Virus record (IMG/VR): IMGVR_UViG_2529292735_000009
Location: 1 to 11,942 of that record
DNA from: a virus
Taxonomy: Duplodnaviria; Heunggongvirae; Uroviricota; Caudoviricetes
Length of the DNA: 11,942 nucleotides
Reading direction: 5' to 3' (one strand)
Below are positions 1-11,942 of this stretch, one piece after another (within the stretch, counting starts at the first letter, position 1; every line of letters starts with the position of its first letter). The position numbers and the translations under genes were made by a program. The notes beneath the pieces are model-generated. The model worked only from the letters and a program-made list of their open reading frames with translations, did no database searches and was not told where the DNA came from.

Positions 1-42
1 GTCTGTGCCCTGACTGAGCAATTGCATGGTGGTGTCGGTCAT
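1..42 (-). CDS. 5' end (14 codons, MTDTTMQLLSQGTD...) of a divergently transcribed gene of unknown function; rest lies outside the window
   Basis: ATG at 42-40 on minus strand preceded by GGGAGGG (revcomp of 49-55) at 5-nt spacing; reading frame open to window edge. Too short to identify. Confidence 0.25.
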   Translation of the reverse strand, partial: MTDTTMQLLSQGTD

Positions 43-199
43 CTGTTCCCTCCCTGTGCGGCATGGTCGCATGTGCGTGCGGAGGGGGTTACTGCTTTTT
101 GTTGTCGCCGTGGCGGGAGAACGGCGCAGGGGTGAGATTACGCGCGTGGTGGGTGATGATTGTTGCCGAATCATTTAACGGATACAAGGGGCTGAAGCT

Positions 200-1385
200 A
201 TGAGTGAAACTCGTTTTCATGGTGCCCGTGTTACGGAAAATACCGACCTGGTAACAGCGATTAACGATGTTGATTCCAGCGTTATCGGTATCGTGGCAAC
301 GGCGGATGATGCGGACGCGAAGCTGTTCCCGCTGAACAAGCCCACACTGCTGACCCGCGTCAATGACGTGCTGGGAAAATGCGGGACAACGGGGACGCTT
401 TATCGTGCGCTTAAGGCCATCGCAGACCAGGTGAGCACAAAAGGTGATCGTCGTTCGCGTGGCTGAACACAAAGAAGAAGACGGTAAGACGCAGGATCAA
501 CTGGTTATCGGTGGTTCTGAGGATGACGGCAGCTATACGGGGATGTATGCGCTGCTTGTTGCAGAGCAGGATGAAAGCATCGGATACCGTCCGCGTATTC
601 TGGCCGCGCCGGAGCTGGACACGGAGGCGGTGACAAAATCCCTGTGCGTGATTGCGGGTAAACTGCGCGCGTTTGTGTATGCCACATGTCATGGTTGTAA
701 CACGATGGCTGAGGCGATTACCTACCGCCAGAAATTCAACGAACGTGAGGTGATGCTCTTATGGCCTGACTTCATAGCCTACAACCCGAAAAGTGGCAAA
801 AACGAAACGTTCCCCGCGCCTGCTTATGCGTGCGGCCTTCGTGCGTACATTGACCATGAGCAGGGCTGGCACAAATCGCTGTCCAACGTTCCGGTTAAAA
901 ATGTGCTGGGAATGTCCAGGCATGTGTTCTGGTCGTTGCAGGCCGAAGACAGCGATGCCAACAGCCTCAACAACAAAGAAATCACGACCATTATTCGTCG
1001 CAACGGGTTCCGCTTCTGGGGCAACCGCACACCGGAAACGAACGCCTACATCTTTGAGGTGTATACCCGAACCGCACAGGTGCTGGCTGATTCAATTGCG
1101 GAAGCGCAGTTTGAAACCATCGACAGTCCACTGACGCCTGCGAACGTGAAGGATGTTATCAGTGCCATCAGGGCAAAACTGGATTCACTGGTGACTGCCG
1201 GGAAACTGATTGGTGCGGAGTGCTGGTATGACGTGGTGGATAACGGCACCACGAATTTACGTCAGGGACGTGTGCGTATTCGCTACAAATATACGCCCGT
1301 TCCGCCACTGGAAGACATGGAGCTTTACCAGACGTTTACTGATGAATACTTTGAACCCGCATTTGCGGTGCTGGGAGGTGCCTGA
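200..1385 (+). CDS. FI: Contractile tail sheath protein (P2 gpFI-like), reading frame interrupted by one frameshift near 438-444
   Basis: ORF 200..466 (88 aa) plus ORF 444..1385 (313 aa) in a different frame together read colinearly with remembered P2 FI (e.g. FPLNKP, KLRAFVYA, IIRRNGFRFWGNRT, YTPVPPLE). Combined span 1186 nt; removing one base at AAAAGG 438-444 restores a ~394 aa protein. RBS AAGGGG 8 nt before ATG 200. Confidence 0.9.
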
Positions 1386-1898
1386 TGGCTGTGCCAAAAC
1401 ATCTTCGCTTTTTTACGTCTGTTTGTGGATGGTGAAAACGAAGTGGGTAAGGTGACGTCCGTCTCTCTGCCTAAGCTGACGCGCAAAACCGACAGCTACC
1501 GGGGTGGTGGCATGATGGGTGCGGTAAGTATTGATCTCGGTCTGGACGACTCCGCGCTTGATGCGAGCTTTGCATGGGGGGGGGCTGTTCGTGAGCTGTT
1601 CCTTAAGTATGGCGGCACGATTGACGGCACGCTGCTGCGTTTTGCGGGTGAATACTACACCGATGCAGAAAGCGACCTGTATGAAGTCGAAATGCGCGGA
1701 CGTGTGACGGAAATTGATATGGGGGAAGCCAAACAGGGCGAAGCCACATCACACTCTTACGCCATTAAAAACACCTACTACAAGCTGAGCGTTAACGATC
1801 GCCCGTTGTGGGAGATTGACCTGCTGAACTTCATTTACCGGAAGGACGGCAAGGACATTGTGCCCGATCGCATCCGTTCCGCGCTTGGGCTTGGCTGA
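1385..1898 (+). CDS. FII: Tail tube protein (P2 gpFII-like), frameshifted at T6 homopolymer 1409-1414
   Basis: ATG 1385 overlaps the sheath stop (cTGATGg). Frame from 1385 reads MAVPKHLRFF then stops at 1433-1435; frame of ORF 1425..1898 continues ...LFVDGENEVGKVTSVSLPKLTRKTDSYRGGGMMG, matching P2 FII (MAMPRKLKLMNVFLNG...TLPKLTRK...YRGAGMNG). Shortening T6 to T5 gives a colinear ~170 aa protein. Confidence 0.88.
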
Positions 1899-1952
1899 TA
1901 AGTAATATGCAGGCGGCGCAGTGCGTCGCCTCTGACTGAAAGGAGTTTCCTG

Positions 1953-2318
1953 ATGAAAGAGACGAAAAACATCGATACCGAAAACACGGTAGTTGCTGAC
2001 ACTGTGAAAGAAACCAGTGAGCGTGGCGTAAAACTTACCCAACCAATTGAGCGAGGCGGCGAAAAAATCACGTATGTGGAGATCACCAGGGCTATTGAGC
2101 AGGCTGGATCTCTGCGAGATTTTGTCGCTGTCTGATGTGCTGAATCTGAAAGCGGAATCCATGTTTACGCTGCTGTCACGCGTGACATCACCGCGACTGG
2201 ATGAAGTGACGATCAAAAAATGGCATCCCGTGACTTTATTCAGTTATGTGTGGTTGCCGTAAATTTTTTGAGCGGTGCGGACTCTGGCGGGAAGAACGAA
2301 CAGGCGACGGAAGCCTGA
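1953..2318 (+). CDS. E: Tail assembly chaperone (P2 gpE-like, lambda G analogue); two compensating indels (T4 at 2120-2123 and A6 at 2215-2220)
   Basis: ATG 1953 follows RBS AAGGAG (1940-1945). Reading passes frame 3 (1953..~2120), frame 1 (LSLSDVLNLKAESMFTLLSRVTSPRLDEVTIKK), then frame 3 again (MASRDFIQLCVVAVNFLSGADSGGKNEQATEA, stop 2316-2318). Pattern matches gpE family as I remember it (...LRG.NLSDLL...LLPR.T.P.L...VVGFL). Confidence 0.75.
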
Positions 2319-2482
2319 TCACGGTTGTGTGCTTTGAGCACATAGAAGACTTTGTGGCAGATATTGCCGTTATTTTTAACTGGTCGCCCGCCGAAATCTT
2401 CATGATGACGCCCGGCGAAGTGGTTAGCTGGCGTGAGCGGGCGGCACTTCGCAGCGGGAGTGCAGACAATGAAGACTCTTGA
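1953..2482 (+). CDS. E': E+E' translational frameshift fusion product (tail assembly chaperone long form)
   Basis: E frame to 2270, then -1 frame 2270..2482 (ERCGLWREERTGDGSLITVVCFEHIEDFVADIAVIFNWSPAEIFMMTPGEVVSWRERAALRSGSADNEDS). The E' segment has no start codon of its own and overlaps the T start by 14 nt. Confidence 0.6.
2264..2270 (+). other. Programmed -1 ribosomal frameshift slippery heptamer T_TTT_TTG generating E+E'
   Basis: Heptamer is in X_XXY_YYZ register relative to the E frame (codons TTT 2265-2267, TTG 2268-2270). The -1 frame is open from here for ~70 codons and ends TGA 2480-2482, overlapping the tape-measure start. Same organisation as described for the P2 E/E' operon. Confidence 0.65.
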
Positions 2483-5277
2483 TATCCGGGTCGCTTTCAG
2501 CGCCGTTGACAGGCTGACCCGGCCTGCCGAAAACGCCCGCCGCCTGATGGGGCAGTTTGGTGACTCCATCCAGCGAACGCAGGGGGCGATCAAAAATCTC
2601 GAGCGTCAGGCGCGATCATTTGAGCGCGCCCGTGACGCTGTCAGTAAAGCGGATGCGGGCATCGTGAAAGCACGACGCCAGCTTAACGCCCTTAATCAGT
2701 TACAACGCACGGGTACAGTGCTCAGACGAAAAACAACAAAAGCTGATGCAGCAGTTAAGCACCCGGCTTGAACGCCTGAATGAATCGCGCACACGGGAAA
2801 TTCAGAAAATGCGGGAGCTTGGCGGAGAGCTGAAACGCCACGGCATTTCCCTGACAGGCAGCGATAACACCATCCAGCAGGCCATCAGACGCACCGAACA
2901 ATACAACAACCAGCTTGAACGCGAACGGCAGGCGCTTGCGCGTGTAACGCGGGCGCGTGAGCGGTATTCGCGCGCGCAGGAAACTGCGGGAAAACTGAAA
3001 ACAGGTGGTGCGCTGGCAATTGGTGCGGCAGCGGCTGGCGGCTATGCTGCCGGGCGTTTTTTGCAGCCTGCGATCGGGTTCGGGAAAGAGATGTCCCGCG
3101 TTCAGGCACTGACGCGAATCGACAAAAACAGCCCGCAGTTTAAGGCGCTGCGTGAGCAGGCATTAAAACTTGGCTCTGAAACACAGTTTACTGCGAGTGA
3201 TGCCGCCAGTGGGCAGAGCTTTCTGGCAATGGCTGGTTTTACTCCGCAGGCCATTCAGGCCGCATTGCCCGGTGTTCTTAATATGGCGCTGGCAGGTGGC
3301 GTCGAACTCGGCGAGACGGCTGATATAGGCTCCAATATCCTCACACAGTTCAACCTGACAGCCGATCAAATGGACCGGGTTGGCGATACGCTGACAGCAG
3401 CATTCACCCGGACCAATACTGATTTACGCGCGCTGGGCGAAACCATGAAGTATACCGGTCCGGTTGCCGCAAAACTTGGTATCAGTCTTGAAGAAGCGGC
3501 AGCCATGGCCGGGATGCTTGCCAATAATGGTCTTCGTGGAAGCGATGCTGGTACGGCCATGCGCGCAAGTCTGTCCCGCCTTGCATCACCGCCAAAAGCT
3601 GCGGCTGATGCGCTGAAAGAGCTGGGGGTGTCAGTTGCTGACGCCAGAGGCAAAATGCGCCCGATGGAGGATGTGCTGCTTGATCTCTATAAGGCGACAC
3701 AAAAATACGGACAGGTGGACCAGGTTTCCTTCTTCAAGGACATCGCCGGAGAAGAGGCGTTCGTTGGTTTGCAGACGCTTGTTGCGGCGGCTGGTTCAGG
3801 AGAGCTGCAAAAACTGACCAGAGAATTGCAGGGGGCAAGGGGAGAGGCCGATCGCGTCGCAAAAGTAATGGCCGATAATCTTGATGGGGACTTGAAAAAT
3901 CTCGACAGCGCATGGGAAGGTCTTCGTATTCGCATCAGTGATCTGGTTGACGGTCCGCTGCGTTCTGTCACGCAGTGGCTCACGCGGGTGCTTGAAAAAA
4001 TCACCTCGCTGGCGCAGGCCCATCCGGTGCTGACGCGCCAGCTACTGATAGCAGGCGGTGCGTTGCTGGCAATGACTGCAACGATTGGCTCGTTGTCGCT
4101 GGTTATTGGGGTGCTTTACGGGAAGTTGGCCACCCTGCGTCTTGGTTTTGACATTCTTACCCGGTCAATGAATGTCGTCAGGGTGTTGCCTGCGCTGTGG
4201 GGAATGGTGACGGGATCCGTTTCTTTACTGGGAGGCGCTATTGGGGCGCTGTTCAGTCCGGTTGGTCTTATCGTGGCTGCGCTTGCCGGAGCTGCCGTTC
4301 TTATCTGGAAATACTGGGATCCCATCAGGGCATTTTTTGCCGGGGTGTTCAGCGGGATTATGGAAAGGCTGACCCCGTTGCGCGAAACCTTTGAACGGTT
4401 TGGTCCTGTTTTTGACGCAATCGGAAGCGGGATAAGCCAGGTGTTTAACTGGTTTAAATCGCTGCTGTCACCGATGGAGTCCAGCAAGGAAACGCTGGAT
4501 AAATGTACCAGTGCTGGCGAGATATTCGGTAACGTTCTTGGCGGTGCGTTACAACTTGTTCTGACACCTGCAAAAATGTTGCTGGATACGCTGGCGTGGA
4601 TACTTGAAAAGCTCGGTGTGCTTCCGGATGAAGCGGAAAGGGCGCGCAAAAAAATCGAAGACGCACAGCGTGCGGCCATTCTTCAGGACAAGGTTGCCTT
4701 GCTTCAGGGGGACCTGGCGAAAATCAATCCGCCGAAGCCTGTGGAAAATGGCAATGGCACCGGAGGTGATAAACCCAAAGACAACAAACCGCTCACAGAC
4801 AGCAATACCGGTACGCTACGCAGACTCAGCAAAATTGCTGATAACACAGGTAAGCTGGTTGATGAGACGAAAAAACGCATTGGCCCCGGCGATATTGTCT
4901 TTAAGAACCTGCCCCGCGCACTTGCTGTTCGTGGGGAGTGGCAGGAGCGGAAGATTGCGCAGGTCAGTAAGCCTGCCCCCGCAATTAATATCACACCCGT
5001 GGTTCCGGCTCCGCTGCCTCCGGCGCTGGTCCCTGTTGTTGCGACCAGCTCCCGCCCGGTGGCGGAGGCCATACGATCGCCAGTGGCATCAGTTCCTGCA
5101 ACTTCCCGTAACCGGGAGCCTGTTGCCTCCGGATTTGGCGGTGAAATTCATGTTCATCTGCATAACGTTGTTACACAGAATCCCCGCGAACTGGCGAAAC
5201 TGGTCGGTGAAATGGTCAGGGCAGAAATGGAACGGCGCGCCCGTGCCAGGCGTGGCAGTTTTTACGATAAAGATTGA
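2469..5277 (+). CDS. T: Tail tape measure protein (P2 gpT-like), frameshifted once between 2668 and 2771
   Basis: ATG 2469 with RBS GGAG 8 nt upstream. N-terminal ~85 codons are in the frame of ORF 2433..2771, then the 843-aa ORF 2746..5277 continues in the +1 frame (open from 2668). Coiled-coil-like N-terminus, central tape-measure core (GSDAGTAMRASLSRLASPPKAA...), hydrophobic Gly/Ala-rich segments and Pro-rich C-terminus. Candidate homopolymers for the shift: A5 2729-2733, A4 2738-2741. Confidence 0.9.
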
Positions 5278-5289
5278 GGAGTCATGGCC

Positions 5290-5778
5290 ATGATGATGAT
5301 CTACGGCATGTTTGTTTTTGAGCTGCGCACGTTGCCGCATCAGCAGTTACAGCAAAACAAAAGCTGGCGACATGTGAAAAATGAACGCGTTAACCGTTCA
5401 GCAAGCTGGCAGTATATCGGTGCAGGTGATGATCGCATCGTTCTTTCTGGTGTTCTTTATCCTGAGATTACTGGTGGCGAAGTGTCGCTGTCGTTGTTGA
5501 CCACGCAGGCATATACAGGACGTCCTTGGCCTTTGATTGATGGCGTCGGGCAGATTTACGGCATGTATGTCCTGACCGGAACGAATACGACCCGCTCCGA
5601 GTTTGATCGCTACGGTAAGGCGAAAAAGATAGAATTTTCACTGACTCTTGAACGCTGTGATGAGGATTTGCGGGAGCGCCTGCAATCCTCATCGTTCAGC
5701 GATATGCTGTCCGGCTTCAAAGATAAGGTGACATCATCCCTTAATAGCGCGGCCAGCTCAGTTAAGGGGCTGCTCTGA
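5290..5778 (+). CDS. U: Tail protein U (P2 gpU-like)
   Basis: ORF 5284..5778; starts MAMMMIYGMFVFELRTLPHQQLQ..., like P2 gpU (MMMVLGLFVFML...). GAGGAG at 5276-5281 is only 2 nt from ATG 5284, so ATG 5290 or 5293 is the more likely start. Confidence 0.85.
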   Translation: MMMIYGMFVFELRTLPHQQLQQNKSWRHVKNERVNRSASWQYIGAGDDRIVLSGVLYPEITGGEVSLSLLTTQAYTGRPWPLIDGVGQIYGMYVLTGTNTTRSEFDRYGKAKKIEFSLTLERCDEDLRERLQSSSFSDMLSGFKDKVTSSLNSAASSVKGLL

Positions 5779-5854
5779 TTTAACGTATGTCGCCAATTTC
5801 CTGATGAAGGTGACTGGCGACTTGCTGTTGTATGTCCTTCTCAGAAAATTGTTT

Positions 5855-5883
5855 TTGAATAACAAATAACAGGATTTTATAAT
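5855..5883 (+). promoter_or_regulatory. Near-consensus sigma70 promoter: -35 TTGAAT (5855-5860), 17-bp spacer, -10 TATAAT (5878-5883)
   Basis: Read directly from sequence. Sits ~50 nt upstream of the acetyltransferase RBS, inside the AT-rich island. Confidence 0.5.
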
Positions 5884-5934
5884 CTCTTAACCTTATAACA
5901 TGTGTGGTCTGAAATAATAATTAAGGAGATTATC

Positions 5935-6507
5935 GTGCTATCTTACTTAATGGCAATTCACTTTGTTTTATTTGGAAACTCTACTAATTTAAAAGACTTC
6001 TGGAAACATGAAGTAATTCGGCGGAAACGTATGGATATCTGGAGGCTTTTAAGAGAGAAAAAGCAGCGTAACCGGAATTTCCTTTTCTGGTGGCGGTTGG
6101 CTAACGAAATGTATATTAATGGTAATAAATTACATAAGAAAGCAGCCAAAAAATTAAACAGTAAAATAATTAACAAGTTTGGTTGTGAAATAGGATTGGG
6201 CGCAAATATTGGAAAAGGGTTGACAATTCCCCATCATGCTGGAATTGTTGTTCATTTTGCTGTTGATGCGGGTGAAAATCTGGTATTACGACAGAATACT
6301 ACCATTGGACAGATAGATGGTGATATGCCTGGTTCAAGAGTAAAAATTGGTAGTAACGTTGATATCGGAGCTAATTGTTGCATCATTGGATTATCACGTA
6401 AAATTGGGGATAATGTAAAAATAGGTGCAATGTCTTTTATAAATAAAGATATACCATCAAACTGCACATATATAACTAAAAAGAGTGGTGTTGTATTGTA
6501 TAAATAG
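5935..6507 (+). CDS. Hexapeptide-repeat (left-handed beta-helix) acetyltransferase, serine-acetyltransferase/WcaB/LacA-like; probable prophage moron
   Basis: ORF 5902..6507. RBS AAGGAG 5923-5928, then GTG 5935 at 6-nt spacing (alternative starts GTG 5902, ATG 5950). Motifs typical of the CysE-like acyltransferase fold: FWWRLANEMYINGNKLHKKAAKKLNSKI, GCEIGLGANIGKGLTIPHHAGIVV, tandem [LIV]G hexapeptide repeats, C-terminal IGANCCIIG...IGAMSFINKDIPSN. G+C visibly far lower than the flanking tail genes. Confidence 0.8.
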   Translation: MLSYLMAIHFVLFGNSTNLKDFWKHEVIRRKRMDIWRLLREKKQRNRNFLFWWRLANEMYINGNKLHKKAAKKLNSKIINKFGCEIGLGANIGKGLTIPHHAGIVVHFAVDAGENLVLRQNTTIGQIDGDMPGSRVKIGSNVDIGANCCIIGLSRKIGDNVKIGAMSFINKDIPSNCTYITKKSGVVLYK

Positions 6508-6514
6508 AATACAT

Positions 6515-6555
6515 AAAGCCATCGATATTTCTGTCGATGGCTTTTTCTTTTTATT
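6515..6555. terminator. Intrinsic terminator between convergent genes: 11-bp perfect stem AAAGCCATCGA / TCGATGGCTTT, 8-nt loop, T-rich tail
   Basis: Stem 6515-6525 and 6534-6544, loop 6526-6533, then TTCTTTTTATT (6545-6555). On the minus strand the hairpin is followed by a weaker U-rich stretch, so it could also serve tfa. Confidence 0.6.
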
Positions 6556-7135
6556 GTGGGGCGACTGGCCACTCAACATCCGCTGCTACTGTTGTATCAA
6601 CACGATTCAACAATACCCGATATGTCTTCCATGCAGCCAGTAACGATGCCTCTTCCTCCGTCGCAATATCCAAATCTACGGCATCCTGAAGTGGCGCAAT
6701 ATGCTCACTGGCTACCTGCATCAGGCTGTTTTTTGTTTCTTCTGCCTCCCGTACCCGAAACAGTTTTTCTGCTTCTGCATCTTTCGCCCAGGATGTGCCG
6801 TTCCACTTCTGACACTCTCCATCCGGCGACAACCAGGTAACATTTTCCGGTAACGGACCGAGTTCAGAAATAAATAACGCGTCCCCTGATGCCACGTCAT
6901 AAACAGTTTTACCCCGATGATCTTCAACGAGATGCCACGATGCCTCATCACTGTTGAAAACAGCCACGAAGCCAGCCGGAATATCTGGCGGTGCAATATC
7001 GGTACTGTTTGCAGGCAGACCTGTATGAGGTGGAATGTATGCATCACCTTCCCCAATAAATTCATTAGTTCCGGCCAGCAGGTTATAAATTTTTATGGTC
7101 CGTGATTGTTCACTCATTCTGAAATCCATGTTCAC
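6551..7135 (-). CDS. tfa: Tail fibre assembly protein (Tfa, lambda/e14 TfaE-like chaperone)
   Basis: 194-aa ORF ([55 protein letters not shown]...), very close to E. coli prophage Tfa proteins as I remember them. GTG 7135 has no spacer after the GAGG RBS, so ATG 7129 is a likely true start. Confidence 0.88.
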
Positions 7136-7137
7136 CT

Positions 7138-7506
7138 CTACTTAATATCAGAGACAGAATATTGTTTATTGAGCGTATGGGTGGGAGTACCAATAACGAT
7201 GCTACTTCCGTGGCTATGTGCGCCAGAGGTGACATTACCTACGGGATTTTCTGGATTAATCCGGTGTATATGCGAACCAGGGCGAAAACGGTTATTAGCC
7301 TGATGTTGTATCAGTACATCATCAGCCTGATGTTCAGGGTTAATACAGACTTGCCCGGAACGTGAGCAACACGTCCGATAATCGCCGCATCCAATATATT
7401 TAGTATCCGCATAACGGCAAACAGAATTACCCGGACAGTATGCATATGTGCCAAATACTGCCGACTGGCGAGATTGTGCGTATTCCCAGTTAATTGATTC
7501 TGTTTT
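7138..7506 (-). other. 122-codon open frame without start codon, Cys/His-rich; probable C-terminal continuation of the macro-domain protein after a homopolymer indel, or relic of an older tail-fibre 3' end
   Basis: The frame opens exactly at the A6 run (plus-strand T6 7503-7508) where the macro domain ends, and stops at TAG 7140-7138, 2 nt before the tfa start. Translation: [60 protein letters not shown]...[33 protein letters not shown]. Confidence 0.4.
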
Positions 7507-8039
7507 TTATTAAAGTTATCCCATGCCTGCTTCATCTGTCGTGCAACACTTTCAAACGGCACCTGACCACATCCGGCCCCCATTGCAGGGAATACCACTG
7601 TTTTTATTTTCATGTCTGTCGTTGCGTTTTTATTGTGCTGAAAGATGGCAAGCAGAGCGGCCCAGGTTGCGTTATATACAGCGTCTGTTCCGTCAATTGT
7701 CAACGGAACACGCATTGTTGGCGCATGTACCAGCCAGGGGTGATGATTATGCCCCGTTTCAATGACAAATGCAGAACCTACAGGCTGTTCGCCGAGATAT
7801 TCACGAAGAATATGATTCTGAACGCGGGACTGTAACTGAGTACCGAAGAATGCGGTAATGGCGGCATCAACGCCACCATCCATCAGGCCGAAACTATTTG
7901 CCGCACTTACCATGCAGTCAAATTCTCTGATTGTTTCAAATGGCTTTCCGACAATATTCACACTATCTGCATTTGCAAATATCCGTTTAAATGCTTCAGC
8001 CATTTCTGTTACTGGTGCAGAAAGAATGAGCGTAATCAT
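7311..8039 (-). CDS. Macro-domain protein (ADP-ribose binding / ADP-ribosyl hydrolase fold), as read in the given frame; probably longer (see next feature)
   Basis: ATG 8039-8037 overlaps the H stop (ATGA). Macro signatures: [28 protein letters not shown] (compare VNAAN..L..GGGV..AI) and [26 protein letters not shown] (compare FPAIS.G.YG.P). G+C lower than the neighbouring tail genes. Confidence 0.75.
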
Positions 8040-10054
8040 GCAAGCCTCACAATATAGTTAAATGCGATGTTTTTTACGGTGTTTTCTGCGTTACCCGTAG
8101 CGTTAACGGTGATGGTATGCCCGTGTGAACCTATCGCAACGGAGTGTGTGTGTGCACCAATTCCTACCGTATGAGTGTGTGCGCCAATATTTACTGTGTG
8201 AGAGTGCCCCCCTGCGTTACTTGTTTTTCCAGTGCCAAGCCCTGAGTTATAACCAGCCGAAACACCATTACCAGCACCAGTGTTGCCAACAGGAATATTG
8301 TGTGAATGATCCCCGGCGCTATTCGTGGTTTTAGTGCCATGGTTAAATGAACTGGACGTCTTGGTACCGTAATCAAACGACGATGTGGTTTTCGTCCCCA
8401 AATCCGTACTGGATGCACTGGCGCTGTGGGTGTGCGATTTAATGCCGTCCTGTTCCTGAGACAATACTGCACGACCACTGGCGGGCTTGCCCTTAATCGT
8501 CCAGCTACGCATATCAGGGATCACGCCTGACGGATAAGCGGCTGCAAGTTTCGGGTATGCAGATTTGTCAAAAGTCTGCCCCTGCATCAGGGCATAACCA
8601 GACGGAACGGTATCTGATGGCCAAGGGATCGGTGCGCCAACCGGATAAAGTTCATGAGGCGAAATATACAGCGAATAAACAGAACCGTCCGTTAATCCTT
8701 CCGGCTTATTAGCAGAATATGCTGGTGAAGTATGAATCGTTACGCTGGCGTTACTGGTATAATCCCATTGAATATTTACACCAGTCGCATAATTTCCGAT
8801 TGCAACGTAAATATCGTAAGTATCACCAGATGTATTGACCCAGGCAAAATTTGTAAACCCTGCCGATGTGCGCTGCCATAAAGCACCAGTAATCCCCTTC
8901 GGATTACCATTACCTGCACGCAAAACAAGTTCAGATATACCTGCCTGTTGAGGTGAGCCGACGTTATATCCAGCCCCACCAATCAACGTAATTGAAACAA
9001 CAGAACTCGCCTGCGGCATGGTTACCGTTGCTAATTTGAACCAACCAGCACCACTGCTGAATGACATAGTTGTTGAGTTAAGCGTACCAATATCTTTCGG
9101 TGTCAGTGTTATATCCGCTGAAAGCGCCTTACCATTCACCTTACGGGCAGAAGGTACCCGACCATTCGCATTGTCATTAGCTGCTTTCACTGCTTTCGAT
9201 GTCGCAGCAAGCGTTTCAGATGTGCTGTTAGTCGCGCTGCTTAGCTGGACAATCCCTTTTTGTGCTGTCGTAGCGTCCTGAGCGGTATATTTCCCGTTAG
9301 CAAGGTCATATGCTGCCTTTACCGCCATTGGTGTTGCCGCCAGCGTTTCAGAATCGCTGTTGGTGGCGCTACTGAGCTGGACAAGGCCTTTTCGCGCTGT
9401 GGTGGCATCCTGCGCAGTATATTTCCCGTTAGCAAGATCATACGCGGCCTTTACTGCTTTCGGCGTTGCAGCCTGCGTTTCAGACACGCTGGTAGTGTCG
9501 CTACTGAGTTGAACAAAGCCTTTTTGCGGTCAGCGAGGCATCCGGGGTGACGTCGTGACTGTTCATGCTCTTTCAGTTTGTCATCCACGTAATCCACTGT
9601 GGCCATCACCATGGTGTTATCCACGGTAAGCGCCACGGTGGCAGTGCTGGATACGGTCAGAATGGTGCGAAATGTTTGTGCACGACCGGACCCTTCGGCA
9701 ACGGCTGGCTTGTAACTTTCGGCAGTATTGACCCACCGCGATTAAATCGCCGTGCTCATCAAATACACCAATTTCCCGGATCCAGAATCCGCCCGTTTCA
9801 GGAGGAATAACCAGCTCCGCAATAATGCGGTTCTGATGTGTTGCGTCCAGGATGACGCGATTAACAGTGTGTCGCCACACCTCATGCACCAGACGGGTCT
9901 GCTTACTGTCTGGTGTGGGCAACGTGCCGCCACCGTCGCCCACGGCCATATGAGTCAGGCGGACAGGCTTACCATCTGGCGCGGCTGCCTGAGCTAATTT
10001 TTTGGCACCCGTATCGGTGATAAGGGTTTTAAATTTTCGTGTTGTGGTACTCAT
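8036..10054 (-). CDS. H: Tail fibre protein (P2 gpH-like N-terminus, tandem fibre repeats, gp37/Stf-like HxH C-terminus); three frameshifts at 9732-9734, 9545-9548 and 9521-9525
   Basis: ORF 9617..10054 ([28 protein letters not shown]...MAVGDGGG...HEVWRH...[10 protein letters not shown]) matches the P2 H N-terminus; ORF 9451..9636 ([28 protein letters not shown]) and ORF 8036..9487 continue it. Fragments join colinearly if one base is removed from CCC 9732-9734, GGGG 9545-9548 and TTTTT 9521-9525. C-terminus carries [32 protein letters not shown] repeats. Confidence 0.9.
9150..9530 (-). repeat. In-frame tandem repeat, ~132 nt (44 aa) period, ~2.8 copies, inside the tail fibre gene
   Basis: Protein repeats KG[FLI][36 protein letters not shown] occur three times; the DNA repeat is visible on the plus strand (tatatttcccgttagcaag[g/a]tcata... 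twice). Boundaries approximate. Confidence 0.6.
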
Positions 10055-10056
10055 GC

Positions 10057-10587
10057 TTAATCGTCCGGATAAATGGTAATGACTTCACCGTCGTAAGTTG
10101 CTGCCGCCGCGAAAATATCCCCCGGGATCTCCTGAATGATATTCAGCCCTGTCATGTGGCGGCTGACCGGGCGGGCATCAGCAATCAACCGCTCCATTTC
10201 CAGATACATTTCCTCCGTCACGCCACTGTCCAGCGTGCCGACTTCAACGGTAAATGTTCCCGGTTCTCCGCCGAACTCCCACCACTCAGACACGCGAATG
10301 AGGTATCCCAGCGGCTCAATGGCCCTGCGCAGTGCGCTGATGGTCCCTTTGTGTCGGTGTATCAGCCATGCATCACTAATCACCTGTCGCTTTGTCTCTT
10401 CCGGCCAGTTGCGATCCCAGCGGTCAACGGAAAACGCCCAGGCGAGATAAGGCAGCAGGTGCACCGGGCAGGTGTCCGGCGACCACAGCGTGTTGAGGTC
10501 TACCGGAATGTCTGTAATGCGTGTTCCGACGGCTTCGGCACAACGCATGAAACTGCTGGCTGATGGTGGTAACAGTGAATTACTCAT
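10057..10587 (-). CDS. I: Baseplate protein gpI-like (tail protein I)
   Basis: ORF 10057..10620, but the likely start is ATG 10587, overlapping the J stop (ATGAGTAA), giving 176 aa (P2 gpI is about that size). Stop is 2 nt before the H start. Confidence 0.85.
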   Translation of the reverse strand: MSNSLLPPSASSFMRCAEAVGTRITDIPVDLNTLWSPDTCPVHLLPYLAWAFSVDRWDRNWPEETKRQVISDAWLIHRHKGTISALRRAIEPLGYLIRVSEWWEFGGEPGTFTVEVGTLDSGVTEEMYLEMERLIADARPVSRHMTGLNIIQEIPGDIFAAAATYDGEVITIYPDD

Positions 10588-11476
10588 TGCGCCCACCTTC
10601 GCTGATGGTGAATGACTCACAGCGCGCTGCCTGTATGTCGCTGATGGCCATATTCTGTGTGGGTTCGATTATCTCCACGCGTTGCACACCGTGCACATGC
10701 AGTGCGGCAGCAATGGCGGACAACGCCACGTCCTGACCGATAAGCCCCTGCTCAGCCAGCCACTTCCTGAACGACGATTCCGCCGCAGCCAGAATAGGTT
10801 CGGATTCCGGGCCGGGGTAAAAGTACAGTTTTGCATTCAGCCGCCATGTCACGATTCTGGCACTCTGTACGGTCAGGCGGTCGGCCACCGGGCGGGTATC
10901 CTCTGCATTCAGAACGGCGCGAACGGTATTAAGCAACGCCTCCGTTGCTGTGCCGTCGCCTTCAGTGGACAGGATGGAAACCGTCACATTTGCCGGAGAC
11001 GGACTGATAGCCCGCGCATCACGCACCAGACCGCTGGCGCTGCGGGCAAAATACTCGTATGCACCTGACGGGCCAGCAACACTCAGGCCGTCGTACGCCC
11101 GTTGCGCCCGCAGTCTCAGCGAGGTGTCGCTTTCCATCACCGCGTCGGTGGTATCCGTTGCCGGAGTGATAACCAGGCGCTTTGTGTTCATATTGCCCGC
11201 GAGGTTGTCCAGGTCTGTCCCGGCGCTGTGGCTTAACATGCAGGCGCGTGCACCCTCGTTAACCCGCTGGCGTAACAGCATTTCACGAAACGACATGGTT
11301 TGAGCGATAACGTTAAGGGGTTCCGATTCCAGCTCCAGCGCGGCGGAAACGGCTTCACGCTGTTCGGCGGGATAAGCCGCAATCATCATGGCCTTTGTGT
11401 CAGCCAGAATTGCCTCAAAGTCAGGCTCCGCGATGATGGCGGGGTCCGGTAACTGTGAAAGGTCAACGGCGGGCAT
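10580..11476 (-). CDS. J: Baseplate assembly protein gpJ-like (baseplate wedge)
   Basis: 298-aa ORF, similar in size to P2 gpJ as I recall it; starts 3 nt after the W stop, with RBS GAGGGA inside the W 3' end. The J identity rests on position and size within the V-W-J-I-H order rather than on motifs I can quote. Confidence 0.88.
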   Translation of the reverse strand: MPAVDLSQLPDPAIIAEPDFEAILADTKAMMIAAYPAEQREAVSAALELESEPLNVIAQTMSFREMLLRQRVNEGARACMLSHSAGTDLDNLAGNMNTKRLVITPATDTTDAVMESDTSLRLRAQRAYDGLSVAGPSGAYEYFARSASGLVRDARAISPSPANVTVSILSTEGDGTATEALLNTVRAVLNAEDTRPVADRLTVQSARIVTWRLNAKLYFYPGPESEPILAAAESSFRKWLAEQGLIGQDVALSAIAAALHVHGVQRVEIIEPTQNMAISDIQAARCESFTISEGGRNE

Positions 11477-11479
11477 GAT

Positions 11480-11830
11480 TTACTCCCTCAGCGTGATGGT
11501 TAATTCAACATTCTGCATGGTCTGCATGACAGTGCCCGACAGCGTCACCCCGGCGCGGCCTCCCGCTTTCCAGACAACGTCGATGGCATCCAGGGCAATG
11601 CGGGGTTCCCATCGTGTCAGCGCAATCACGGCAGCACTCATGCATTGCAGACGCGTGGTGTTATTCATGGGTTCGTCAATCAAATCAGGCACAAGGCTGC
11701 CATATTCCCGTCGCATAACCCGGCTTGCCAGCGGGGTGGTCAGGATATCCCTGACTGACTGTTTCAGGTGCTCCATATCGTTCAGGTTTCCCGTCCCGTC
11801 CGGATTCATTCCTGTGTAGCGGGTTGTCAC
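11480..11830 (-). CDS. W: Baseplate protein gpW-like (gp25/GPW family)
   Basis: 116-aa ORF MTTRYTGMNPDGTGNLNDMEHLKQSVRDILTTPLASRVMRREYGSLVPDLID..., matching P2 gpW (MTARYLGMNR...DLEHI.QSI.DIL.TP.GSRVMRRDYGSL) in sequence and length. GTG start overlaps the stop of the upstream gene (GTGA). Confidence 0.9.
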   Translation of the reverse strand: MTTRYTGMNPDGTGNLNDMEHLKQSVRDILTTPLASRVMRREYGSLVPDLIDEPMNNTTRLQCMSAAVIALTRWEPRIALDAIDVVWKAGGRAGVTLSGTVMQTMQNVELTITLRE

Positions 11831-11942
11831 TGCGGGCCTCCTGTCGAATCGCTGCCACCTTTCACGCCACCGTGTTTATGCGTATGCACGGTAATGCCGT
11901 TTGAGGTGAAATTGCCGCCGCTGTGCGTGATATTGCCGCTCA
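11827..11942 (-). CDS. V: 3' end of baseplate spike protein gpV-like gene (5' part outside window)
   Basis: Open frame from the window edge reading ...SGNITHSGGNFTSNGITVHTHKHGGVKGGSDSTGGPQ*, stop TGA overlapping the W start; position immediately upstream of W as in P2 (V-W-J-I-H). Gly/His-rich C-terminus is typical of gpV spikes. Confidence 0.65.
   Translation of the reverse strand, partial: SGNITHSGGNFTSNGITVHTHKHGGVKGGSDSTGGPQ

Follow-up and report, generated by a model that had tools for sequence, protein, structure and literature searches.

The 11,942-nucleotide stretch analysed here (hereafter the window) is, with high confidence, the tail-gene region of a P88-type prophage from the Xuanwuvirus/Gemsvirus branch of the Peduoviridae. 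It displays the P88-type layout, in which the FI-U genes converge on the V-to-tfa operon and D is divergent from FI, and not the collinear layout of P2 sensu stricto, in which D comes directly after U. This layout is old and widespread, belongs to an ICTV-recognised group with many deposited genomes, and is already known.

Gene content and gene order of the tail region

Using a combination of open-reading-frame listing and Pfam scans, with coordinates transferred from an intact annotated relative, we assigned the following genes to the plus strand: FI (tail sheath; 200-1385; Pfam Phage_sheath_1, Phage_sheath_1C and Gp18_domIII_N); FII (tail tube; 1385-1898; Phage_tube, E = 1.8e-43); the tail chaperones E/E' of the GpE family (1953-2482; mapped from the annotated intact relative L001 and by tblastn with the E proteins of P2 and P88); T (tape measure; 2469-5277; PhageMin_Tail, E = 9e-57); the intact tail gene U, with which the flipped FI-U block ends (5290-5778; Phage_P2_GpU, E = 1.5e-38); and a cargo gene encoding a hexapeptide acetyltransferase of 190 amino acids (5935-6507). 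The minus strand carries tfa (tail fibre assembly, the gpG analogue; 6551-7129; Caudo_TAP, E = 7e-40; PHROG 105); a macro-domain gene located between H and tfa (7138-8039; Macro, E = 7e-19), which was absent from the initial annotation; H (tail fibre; 8036-10054; Phage_tail_fib N-terminal domain, Phage_fiber_2 and Collar); the baseplate genes I (10057-10587; Tail_P2_I) and J (10580-11476; Baseplate_J); W (11480-11830; GPW_gp25); and the 3' end of V, which is cut by the end of the window (11827-11942; GpV Apex motif). Pfam covered all tail genes with the exceptions of E, which had no Pfam match, and of the start of D, which was identified through the P88 protein gp51. Together, these genes make up the complete P2-family tail set, i.e. 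FI, FII, E/E', T, U, D, V, W, J, I, H and tfa. The GC content is 33-37% between 5779 and 6550, versus 50-58% in the flanks, and the sole match of an Rfam scan of the window was IS009, inside tfa. As the initial annotation had read it, FI to U run on the plus strand and V to tfa on the minus strand, the two groups meeting head-on at the acetyltransferase, and the gene located 3' of U is the acetyltransferase and not D.

The same annotation had reported gpD as missing, which is wrong. The translation of the open reading frame starting at position 42 and running on the minus strand to position 1, MTDTTMQLLSQGTD, is identical to residues 1-14 of P88 gp51, the gpD homologue of this phage (366 amino acids; 50% identity to P2 gpD in alignment). 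Therefore, D lies divergently upstream of FI, and its 5' end (1-42) continues beyond the left edge of the window. The start of D is separated from FI, on the opposite strand, by 157 bp, and the gene occupying this position in the relatives is annotated as 'phage late control D family protein' or 'tail formation protein GpD'.

The window matches the isolated Peduoviridae P88, P884B11, 503458, 520873 (Xuanwuvirus), 500465-2 (Gemsvirus), Citrobacter phage Shae_phiSM and PhiR44_2. In the annotated genomes of P88, 500465-2, Shae_phiSM and PhiR44_2, ogr and D lie on one strand, FI, FII, E, T and U follow on the other, and, after either an invertase gene or nothing, tfa, H, I, J, W, V, S and R lie again on the strand of D. 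The window shares with P88 and its relatives the order and strands of the genes, the N-terminus of D, which is identical to that of P88, and 92-97.5% nucleotide identity over positions 1-5784. The right-hand conserved part, which extends from within H, or from I, to position 11942, is 95-97% identical to P88, ΦSM and 500465-2, and 87% identical to PhiR44_2. The identity to P88, as calculated within the 11.9-kb window, is 94.8% over 1-5784 and 97.3% over 9175-11942; the ICTV criterion for a genus is about 70% nucleotide identity over the full genome. Both P88 and ΦSM have been described as active temperate phages (PMC6456863; PMC5285337).

The distribution of this layout was surveyed in gpU-anchored loci from one genome per GTDB species (55 loci), which were typed by tblastn with reference proteins of P2 and P88. 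The convergent layout was found in about 40 of these 55 loci, from 18 genera of Enterobacterales, in a survey that was seeded with the gpU of the window, and is thus biased to its relatives, so that a single origin of the inversion is not provable from it. The genera are Salmonella, Serratia, Enterobacter, Kosakonia, Trabulsiella, Symbiopectobacterium, Mixta, Izhakiella, Pantoea, Kluyvera, Klebsiella, Yokenella, Edwardsiella, Morganella, Providencia, Photorhabdus, Xenorhabdus and Citrobacter. The loci with a gpU that is 39-46% identical (Acinetobacter, Halomonas, Idiomarina and Chitinimonas) have the P2 order. Among 5,426 complete E. coli genomes, 227 have a single locus that covers 80% or more of the window, and eight, such as that of O157:H7 493/89, cover 99% of it in one place and in the same order. 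The U-acetyltransferase-tfa junction (a 1.1-kb stretch from the end of U to the end of tfa) is complete in 495 of them, with up to 99.6% identity, and roughly one complete E. coli genome in four contains P88-type sheath sequence. These data support the proposal, made in the initial annotation, of a lineage with a different tail-gene layout: the convergent order is standard in intact P2-like phages, namely P88, Shae_phiSM, 500465-2 and PhiR44_2, as well as in the approximately 40 loci, so that the order that had seemed unusual is in fact ordinary.

The FI-U inversion and the late promoter of FI

In P2 (Peduovirus), the annotated order is V W J I H G, with fun (Z) on the opposite strand, followed by FI FII E E' T U D ogr. 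All tail genes of P2 (V-W-J-I-H-G and FI-FII-E-E'-T-U-D) lie on one strand, whereas FI-U is flipped in the window. When the two circular maps are compared, this flip is the only difference, D and ogr keeping their orientation relative to the V operon. The two layouts have in common the set of tail proteins (26-64% amino-acid identity between P2 and P88), an Ogr-type site (TGT-N12-ACA) that precedes FI by a similar distance, and a cargo hotspot that adjoins the fibre assembly gene. They differ in that D closes the F operon of P2, where its start overlaps the stop of U, whereas it is a separate divergent unit in the window, and in that the hotspot lies between G and FI in P2 (fun/Z), and between tfa and U in the window.

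From this comparison, the breakpoints of the inversion map to G|FI, that is the Z/fun cargo hotspot, and to U|D, where conservation between P2 and P88 is lost over the ~35 C-terminal residues of U and the ~18 N-terminal residues of D. Cargo, fibre swaps and invertases are documented at the Z/fun hotspot of P2-like phages (bioRxiv 10.1101/2024.10.15.618418). In view of the low identity of the P2 and P88 tail proteins, the FI-U inversion is ancient, and it is lineage-defining. The inversion of this block with a breakpoint at the cargo hotspot, which the initial annotation had considered, can consequently be retained as an ancient event that flipped FI-U between G|FI and U|D, and not as a rearrangement of the genome of the window. 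In the literature consulted, we found no paper, the P88 genome paper included, that explicitly states this inversion, which is visible only in deposited annotations.

At the Ogr/Delta-dependent late promoters of P2, transcription starts about 55 nt downstream of a TGT-N12-ACA activator site. A dyad of this type, TGTCGCCGTGGCGGGAGA (103-120; one mismatch), occurs in the window within the 157 bp that separate D from FI; its center lies 88 nt upstream of the ATG of FI and 69 nt from that of D. In the P2 record, where late-promoter activator sites and start points are annotated, FI follows the center of the pF site by 83 nt. Among related loci, D and FI are separated by 122-259 bp (37 loci), and 28 of 30 loci have a dyad with at most one mismatch whose center precedes the FI ATG by 74-89 nt, whereas 1000 shuffles gave 1.9 such loci on average and 8 at most. 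Across these loci, the half-sites are conserved and the spacers are variable. We presume that the dyad at 103-120 is the activator site of pF, and its conservation upstream of FI indicates that pF moved together with the flipped FI-U block.

By analogy with P2, in which the divergent promoters pP and pO share one site and have their starts 55-56 nt from it in each direction, we propose from geometry alone that the same dyad is probably bidirectional and serves a divergent late promoter of D as well. The predicted leader of the D transcript in the window would be only ~13-14 nt long, which counts against a shared promoter. The comparison with P2 shows that, through the flipping of FI-FII-E-E'-T-U together with pF, the transcription of FI-U is directed towards the end of the R-S-V-W-J-I-H-tfa operon, and that D has ceased to be the end of the F operon and starts 157 bp upstream of FI, with ogr further on. 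In the model of a shared promoter, the single Ogr site of pF would have been turned by the inversion into a bidirectional late promoter, now driving D too, and this shared D/FI promoter, similarly to the pP/pO pair of P2, would leave the regulation of D tied to that of the other tail genes. The place where the two groups converge remains a hotspot for cargo and host-range genes.

The variable cassette between U and H

The homology of the window to all P88-like phages ends at 5784-5787, i.e. 6-9 nt after the stop of U, and resumes within H at ~9175-9440, so that the region extending from 5785 to ~9170 is a mosaic cassette. Its left boundary coincides with a stable hairpin located directly after U (5785-5830, plus strand; −21.2 kcal/mol, z = −4.6). 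In H, the N-terminal part is conserved and the tip at the C-terminus is mosaic. In related loci, the U-tfa interval is mostly empty, and in several of them it contains an invertase segment or other cargo; this varied content shows that the site behaves as a hotspot. The convergence point of P88, ΦSM and 500465-2 carries a DNA invertase (of the Gin/Cin type in P88) together with an invertible segment of alternative fibre and tfa genes, whereas that of PhiR44_2 carries no cargo. By contrast, the window has at this place a fixed cassette comprising the acetyltransferase moron, a bidirectional terminator, tfa, the macro-domain gene and a different, mosaic fibre tip. No Gin/Cin/Pin-type invertible fibre segment was found in the window, which has no invertase homologue, core site or flanking inverted repeats, whereas P88 has both the invertase and the cores.

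The interval 5779-6550 is a typical moron, composed of a promoter-like site, the acetyltransferase gene and a bidirectional terminator, as judged from these elements, the deviating GC content and the placement between conserved genes. The promoter-like site, TTGAAT-17-TATAAT (5855-5883, plus strand), agrees with the sigma-70 consensus at 10 of 12 positions; it is a consensus match only, and the number of sigma-70-like sites in the region is not above the expectation from shuffling. The acetyltransferase gene begins with a GTG codon at 5935, preceded by an AAGGAG ribosome-binding site. The strong intrinsic terminator (6515-6544), which is shared with tfa at the meeting point of the plus and minus units, was matched by the terminator scan on both strands, with free energies of −19.1 kcal/mol on the plus strand (z = −7.3) and −16.5 kcal/mol on the minus strand (z = −5.4).

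The acetyltransferase is of the left-handed beta-helix (hexapeptide) type and resembles CysE, WcaB and EpsC. It scored far below the cut-offs of the three corresponding NCBIfam models, namely EpsC (NF041874; 75.5 bits for a cut-off of 150), CysE (TIGR01172; 61.7 bits for 210.65) and WcaB (TIGR04016; 53.8 bits for 194.65). Serine acetyltransferases of the PDB match it at E = 1e-12, over the beta-helix only, and it also matches PHROG 2154, a family of unknown function (E = 2e-87). The gene is annotated as 'serine O-acetyltransferase' in the relatives, an assignment to true CysE that we rejected on account of the scores below all equivalog cut-offs. The protein is better described as a candidate sugar or polysaccharide O-acetyltransferase of the WcaB/EpsC-like kind, and its most likely function would be to acetylate a surface polysaccharide of the lysogen (lysogenic conversion). 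Phage-borne polysaccharide O-acetyltransferase morons are known to adjoin receptor-binding genes, as exemplified by NeuO of prophage CUS-3. Like the NeuO-type morons, that of the window is an autonomous unit encoding a hexapeptide-repeat acetyltransferase beside the fibre or tailspike module of a temperate phage; it differs from them in that the best matches of its enzyme are of the EpsC, CysE and WcaB types, below the cut-offs. When the window was searched for defence systems with PADLOC, the acetyltransferase had no match and the macro-domain protein had a negligible match to DarG (E = 0.004); a literature search on tail-fibre-linked macro domains returned nothing specific.

The P1-like phages (Punavirus) JL22 and vB_EcoM-Ro157c2YLVW carry, with ~90% nucleotide identity, a cassette of the same convergent arrangement, in which the acetyltransferase gene faces tfa and the fibre gene. 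These phages differ from the window by an unrelated backbone, by having no macro-domain gene between the fibre gene and tfa, and by the region upstream of the acetyltransferase, as the similarity begins at the start codon (window position 5936) and the promoter region differs. In Ro157c2YLVW, the acetyltransferase-tfa-fibre tip unit adjoins a U' remnant, a neighbourhood that we take to be the expected place of the invertible C segment of P1. It is conceivable, if rather unlikely, that an acetyltransferase-tfa-tip cassette moves between P88-type and P1-type phages, and that its enzyme acetylates the polysaccharide serving as receptor for the tip, thereby protecting the lysogen. If true, the lysogen would be shielded from superinfection by phages equipped with the same receptor-binding module.

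State of this copy and significance of the layout

As compared with its closest intact relative (E. coli O157:H7 493/89, ~97% identity), the window has 13 private single-base indels, and six genes are broken by indels, namely FI, FII, E, T, the macro-domain gene and H. FI is split by a +1 insertion at 443, which was found in none of the 1,373 E. coli genomes carrying this segment. FII has an insertion at 1418 and paired indels at 1572/1576; E/E' has indels at 2120 and 2214; T is frameshifted at 2726; the macro-domain gene is frameshifted at 7502 (T7 to T6), its intact version of 300 amino acids being found in L001; and H is frameshifted at 9521, 9544 and 9731. The indels at 1418, 2726 and 9731 are outside homopolymers. 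U has no substitution relative to L001, and the substitutions relative to the closest relative are mostly synonymous (47 synonymous and 16 non-synonymous in T; 25 and 6 in J), which argues that they are genuine divergence of a functional lineage, while the indels would be recent decay or assembly noise. With frameshifts in six genes, this copy may not be a working phage.

Three other explanations bear on these features. The window may be a decaying, non-inducible prophage remnant with the standard layout, in which the frameshifts are real pseudogenisation and not sequencing errors. We give even chances to this explanation, as the disruption of six genes, the occurrence of several indels outside homopolymers, the absence of the insertion at 443 from all 1,373 E. 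coli genomes with this segment, and the visible degradation, by IS30 and IS1203, of the O157:H7 relatives of the same prophage speak for it, whereas the mostly synonymous substitutions would make any decay recent, and an unpolished long-read assembly typically shows the same pattern, with roughly one indel per kb and little excess of non-synonymous changes. The same indels, together with the abrupt fall in GC at 5785-6550, could be taken as signs that the sequence was mis-assembled or joined chimerically, either at the acetyltransferase island or at the left edge, as the initial annotation had envisaged. Such a join is refuted, for practical purposes, by the 495 independently assembled E. coli genomes with the complete U-acetyltransferase-tfa junction, by the 227 genomes that carry at least 80% of the window in one place, by the eight that carry 99% of it in one place and in the same order, and by the unbroken alignment of positions 1-5784, across the D-FI junction, to every P88-type phage.

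A recent inversion of FI-U in the genome of the window, through inverted repeats or a site-specific invertase of the hotspot, retains barely more credit than a mis-assembly and is effectively refuted. It could draw on the Gin/Cin-type invertase that lies directly beside U, at one of the breakpoints, in P88 and several relatives, but all isolated relatives and the ~40 loci from 18 genera share one orientation of the block, and the divergence of the P2 and P88 tail proteins points to an old split. Furthermore, no inverted repeats flank the block, no pair of repeats links 1-250 with 5700-6600, and the window contains neither an invertase gene nor the AAACCNNGGTTT crossover core. The two cores found in P88, at 8900 and 11971, bracket the fibre segment, and none occurs in its D-FI intergenic region. 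With no crossover core in either the window or this P88 region, an invertase origin of the inversion is unsupported. An ancient inversion that defines the P88-type lineage is thus the reading that we retain.

The importance of these findings is limited mainly to correct annotation, and they bring no new biology. When P2 is used as the sole template, P88-type prophages are flagged as rearranged or mis-assembled, and gpD is reported as missing. The U-tfa hotspot is the topological equivalent of the Z/fun hotspot of P2, and is useful for the mining of accessory genes. Finally, the D/FI late promoter that we infer to be shared would provide a small, testable example of an operon that was split by an inversion without losing the co-regulation of its genes.

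Related prophages and single-base indels

In O157:H7 strains, the same prophage as that of the window adjoins tRNA-Leu near pgsA/uvrC, and these copies are degraded by insertion sequences (12710-15042 in L001, the locus of strain 493/89; 3476-8678 in L063, that of PV15-279). D is split by IS30 in strain 493/89, and the region from FI through the 5' part of T was removed by IS30 and IS1203 in PV15-279. A P88-type prophage, with 92% DNA identity to the window, also occurs on a 226-kb contig (L008; NZ_JBQPOM010000071.1) labelled as originating from a Firmicute, Vagococcus sp. WN89Y. Contamination or mislabelling of that assembly is suggested here, and not that the prophage resides in a Gram-positive bacterium.

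As compared to an intact relative, the window possesses 13 single-base indels (at positions 443, 1418, 1572/1576, 2120, 2214, 2726, 7502, 9183/9188, 9521, 9544 and 9731), which break the FI, FII, E, T, macro-domain and H genes. Either these genes became pseudogenes very recently, or the assembly is unpolished. Despite the indels, the substitutions separating the window from this relative are still mostly synonymous, and the insertion at 443 was found in none of 1,373 E. coli genomes.

The acetyltransferase-tfa-fibre tip cassette and the macro-domain gene

The acetyltransferase-tfa-fibre tip cassette of the window (5936 to about 9079) is common to the P1-like phages JL22 and vB_EcoM-Ro157c2YLVW, with approximately 90% nucleotide identity. 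In Ro157c2YLVW, it is adjoined by a U' remnant, at a position where, going by P1, the invertible C segment would be expected. For lambdoid phages (mEp460, ev099, 2H10 and others), the similarity is confined to tfa and the fibre tip. The Rfam family IS009 (RF02111) is matched over its full length at 6588-6786 on the minus strand (191 bits, for a gathering score of 117), wholly within the tfa coding sequence, and this "RNA family" match probably does no more than mirror a tfa sequence conserved across E. coli prophages.

Between H and tfa, a gene on the minus strand (7138-8039), the start of which overlaps the H stop codon, encodes a macro domain (ADP-ribose binding or hydrolase fold); the window copy is frameshifted at 7502. 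Members of its family in Escherichia phage Chuche (85% identity), Gifsy-1 (70%) and the Salmonella phages SEN4 and SEN5 (63%) adjoin tail-fibre genes. Only the macro part is found in jumbo-phage proteins, such as those of phiRSL1, Noxifer and FBKp24, that are annotated as "tail protein".

Repeats in H and crossover cores of P88

The H gene harbors three tandem 132-nt units (9162-9557) coding for Phage_fiber_2 repeats. A further unit is present in the O157:H7 relative and explains the 132-bp offset in its alignment with the window.

In phage P88 (L002), Gin/Cin-type crossover cores occur at 8900-8911 and 11971-11982, with the sequences AAACCTCGGTTT and AAACCGAGGTAT; one core adjoins the invertase gene and the other lies within H. 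The segment of about 3 kb that they bound is presumably an invertible host-range segment.
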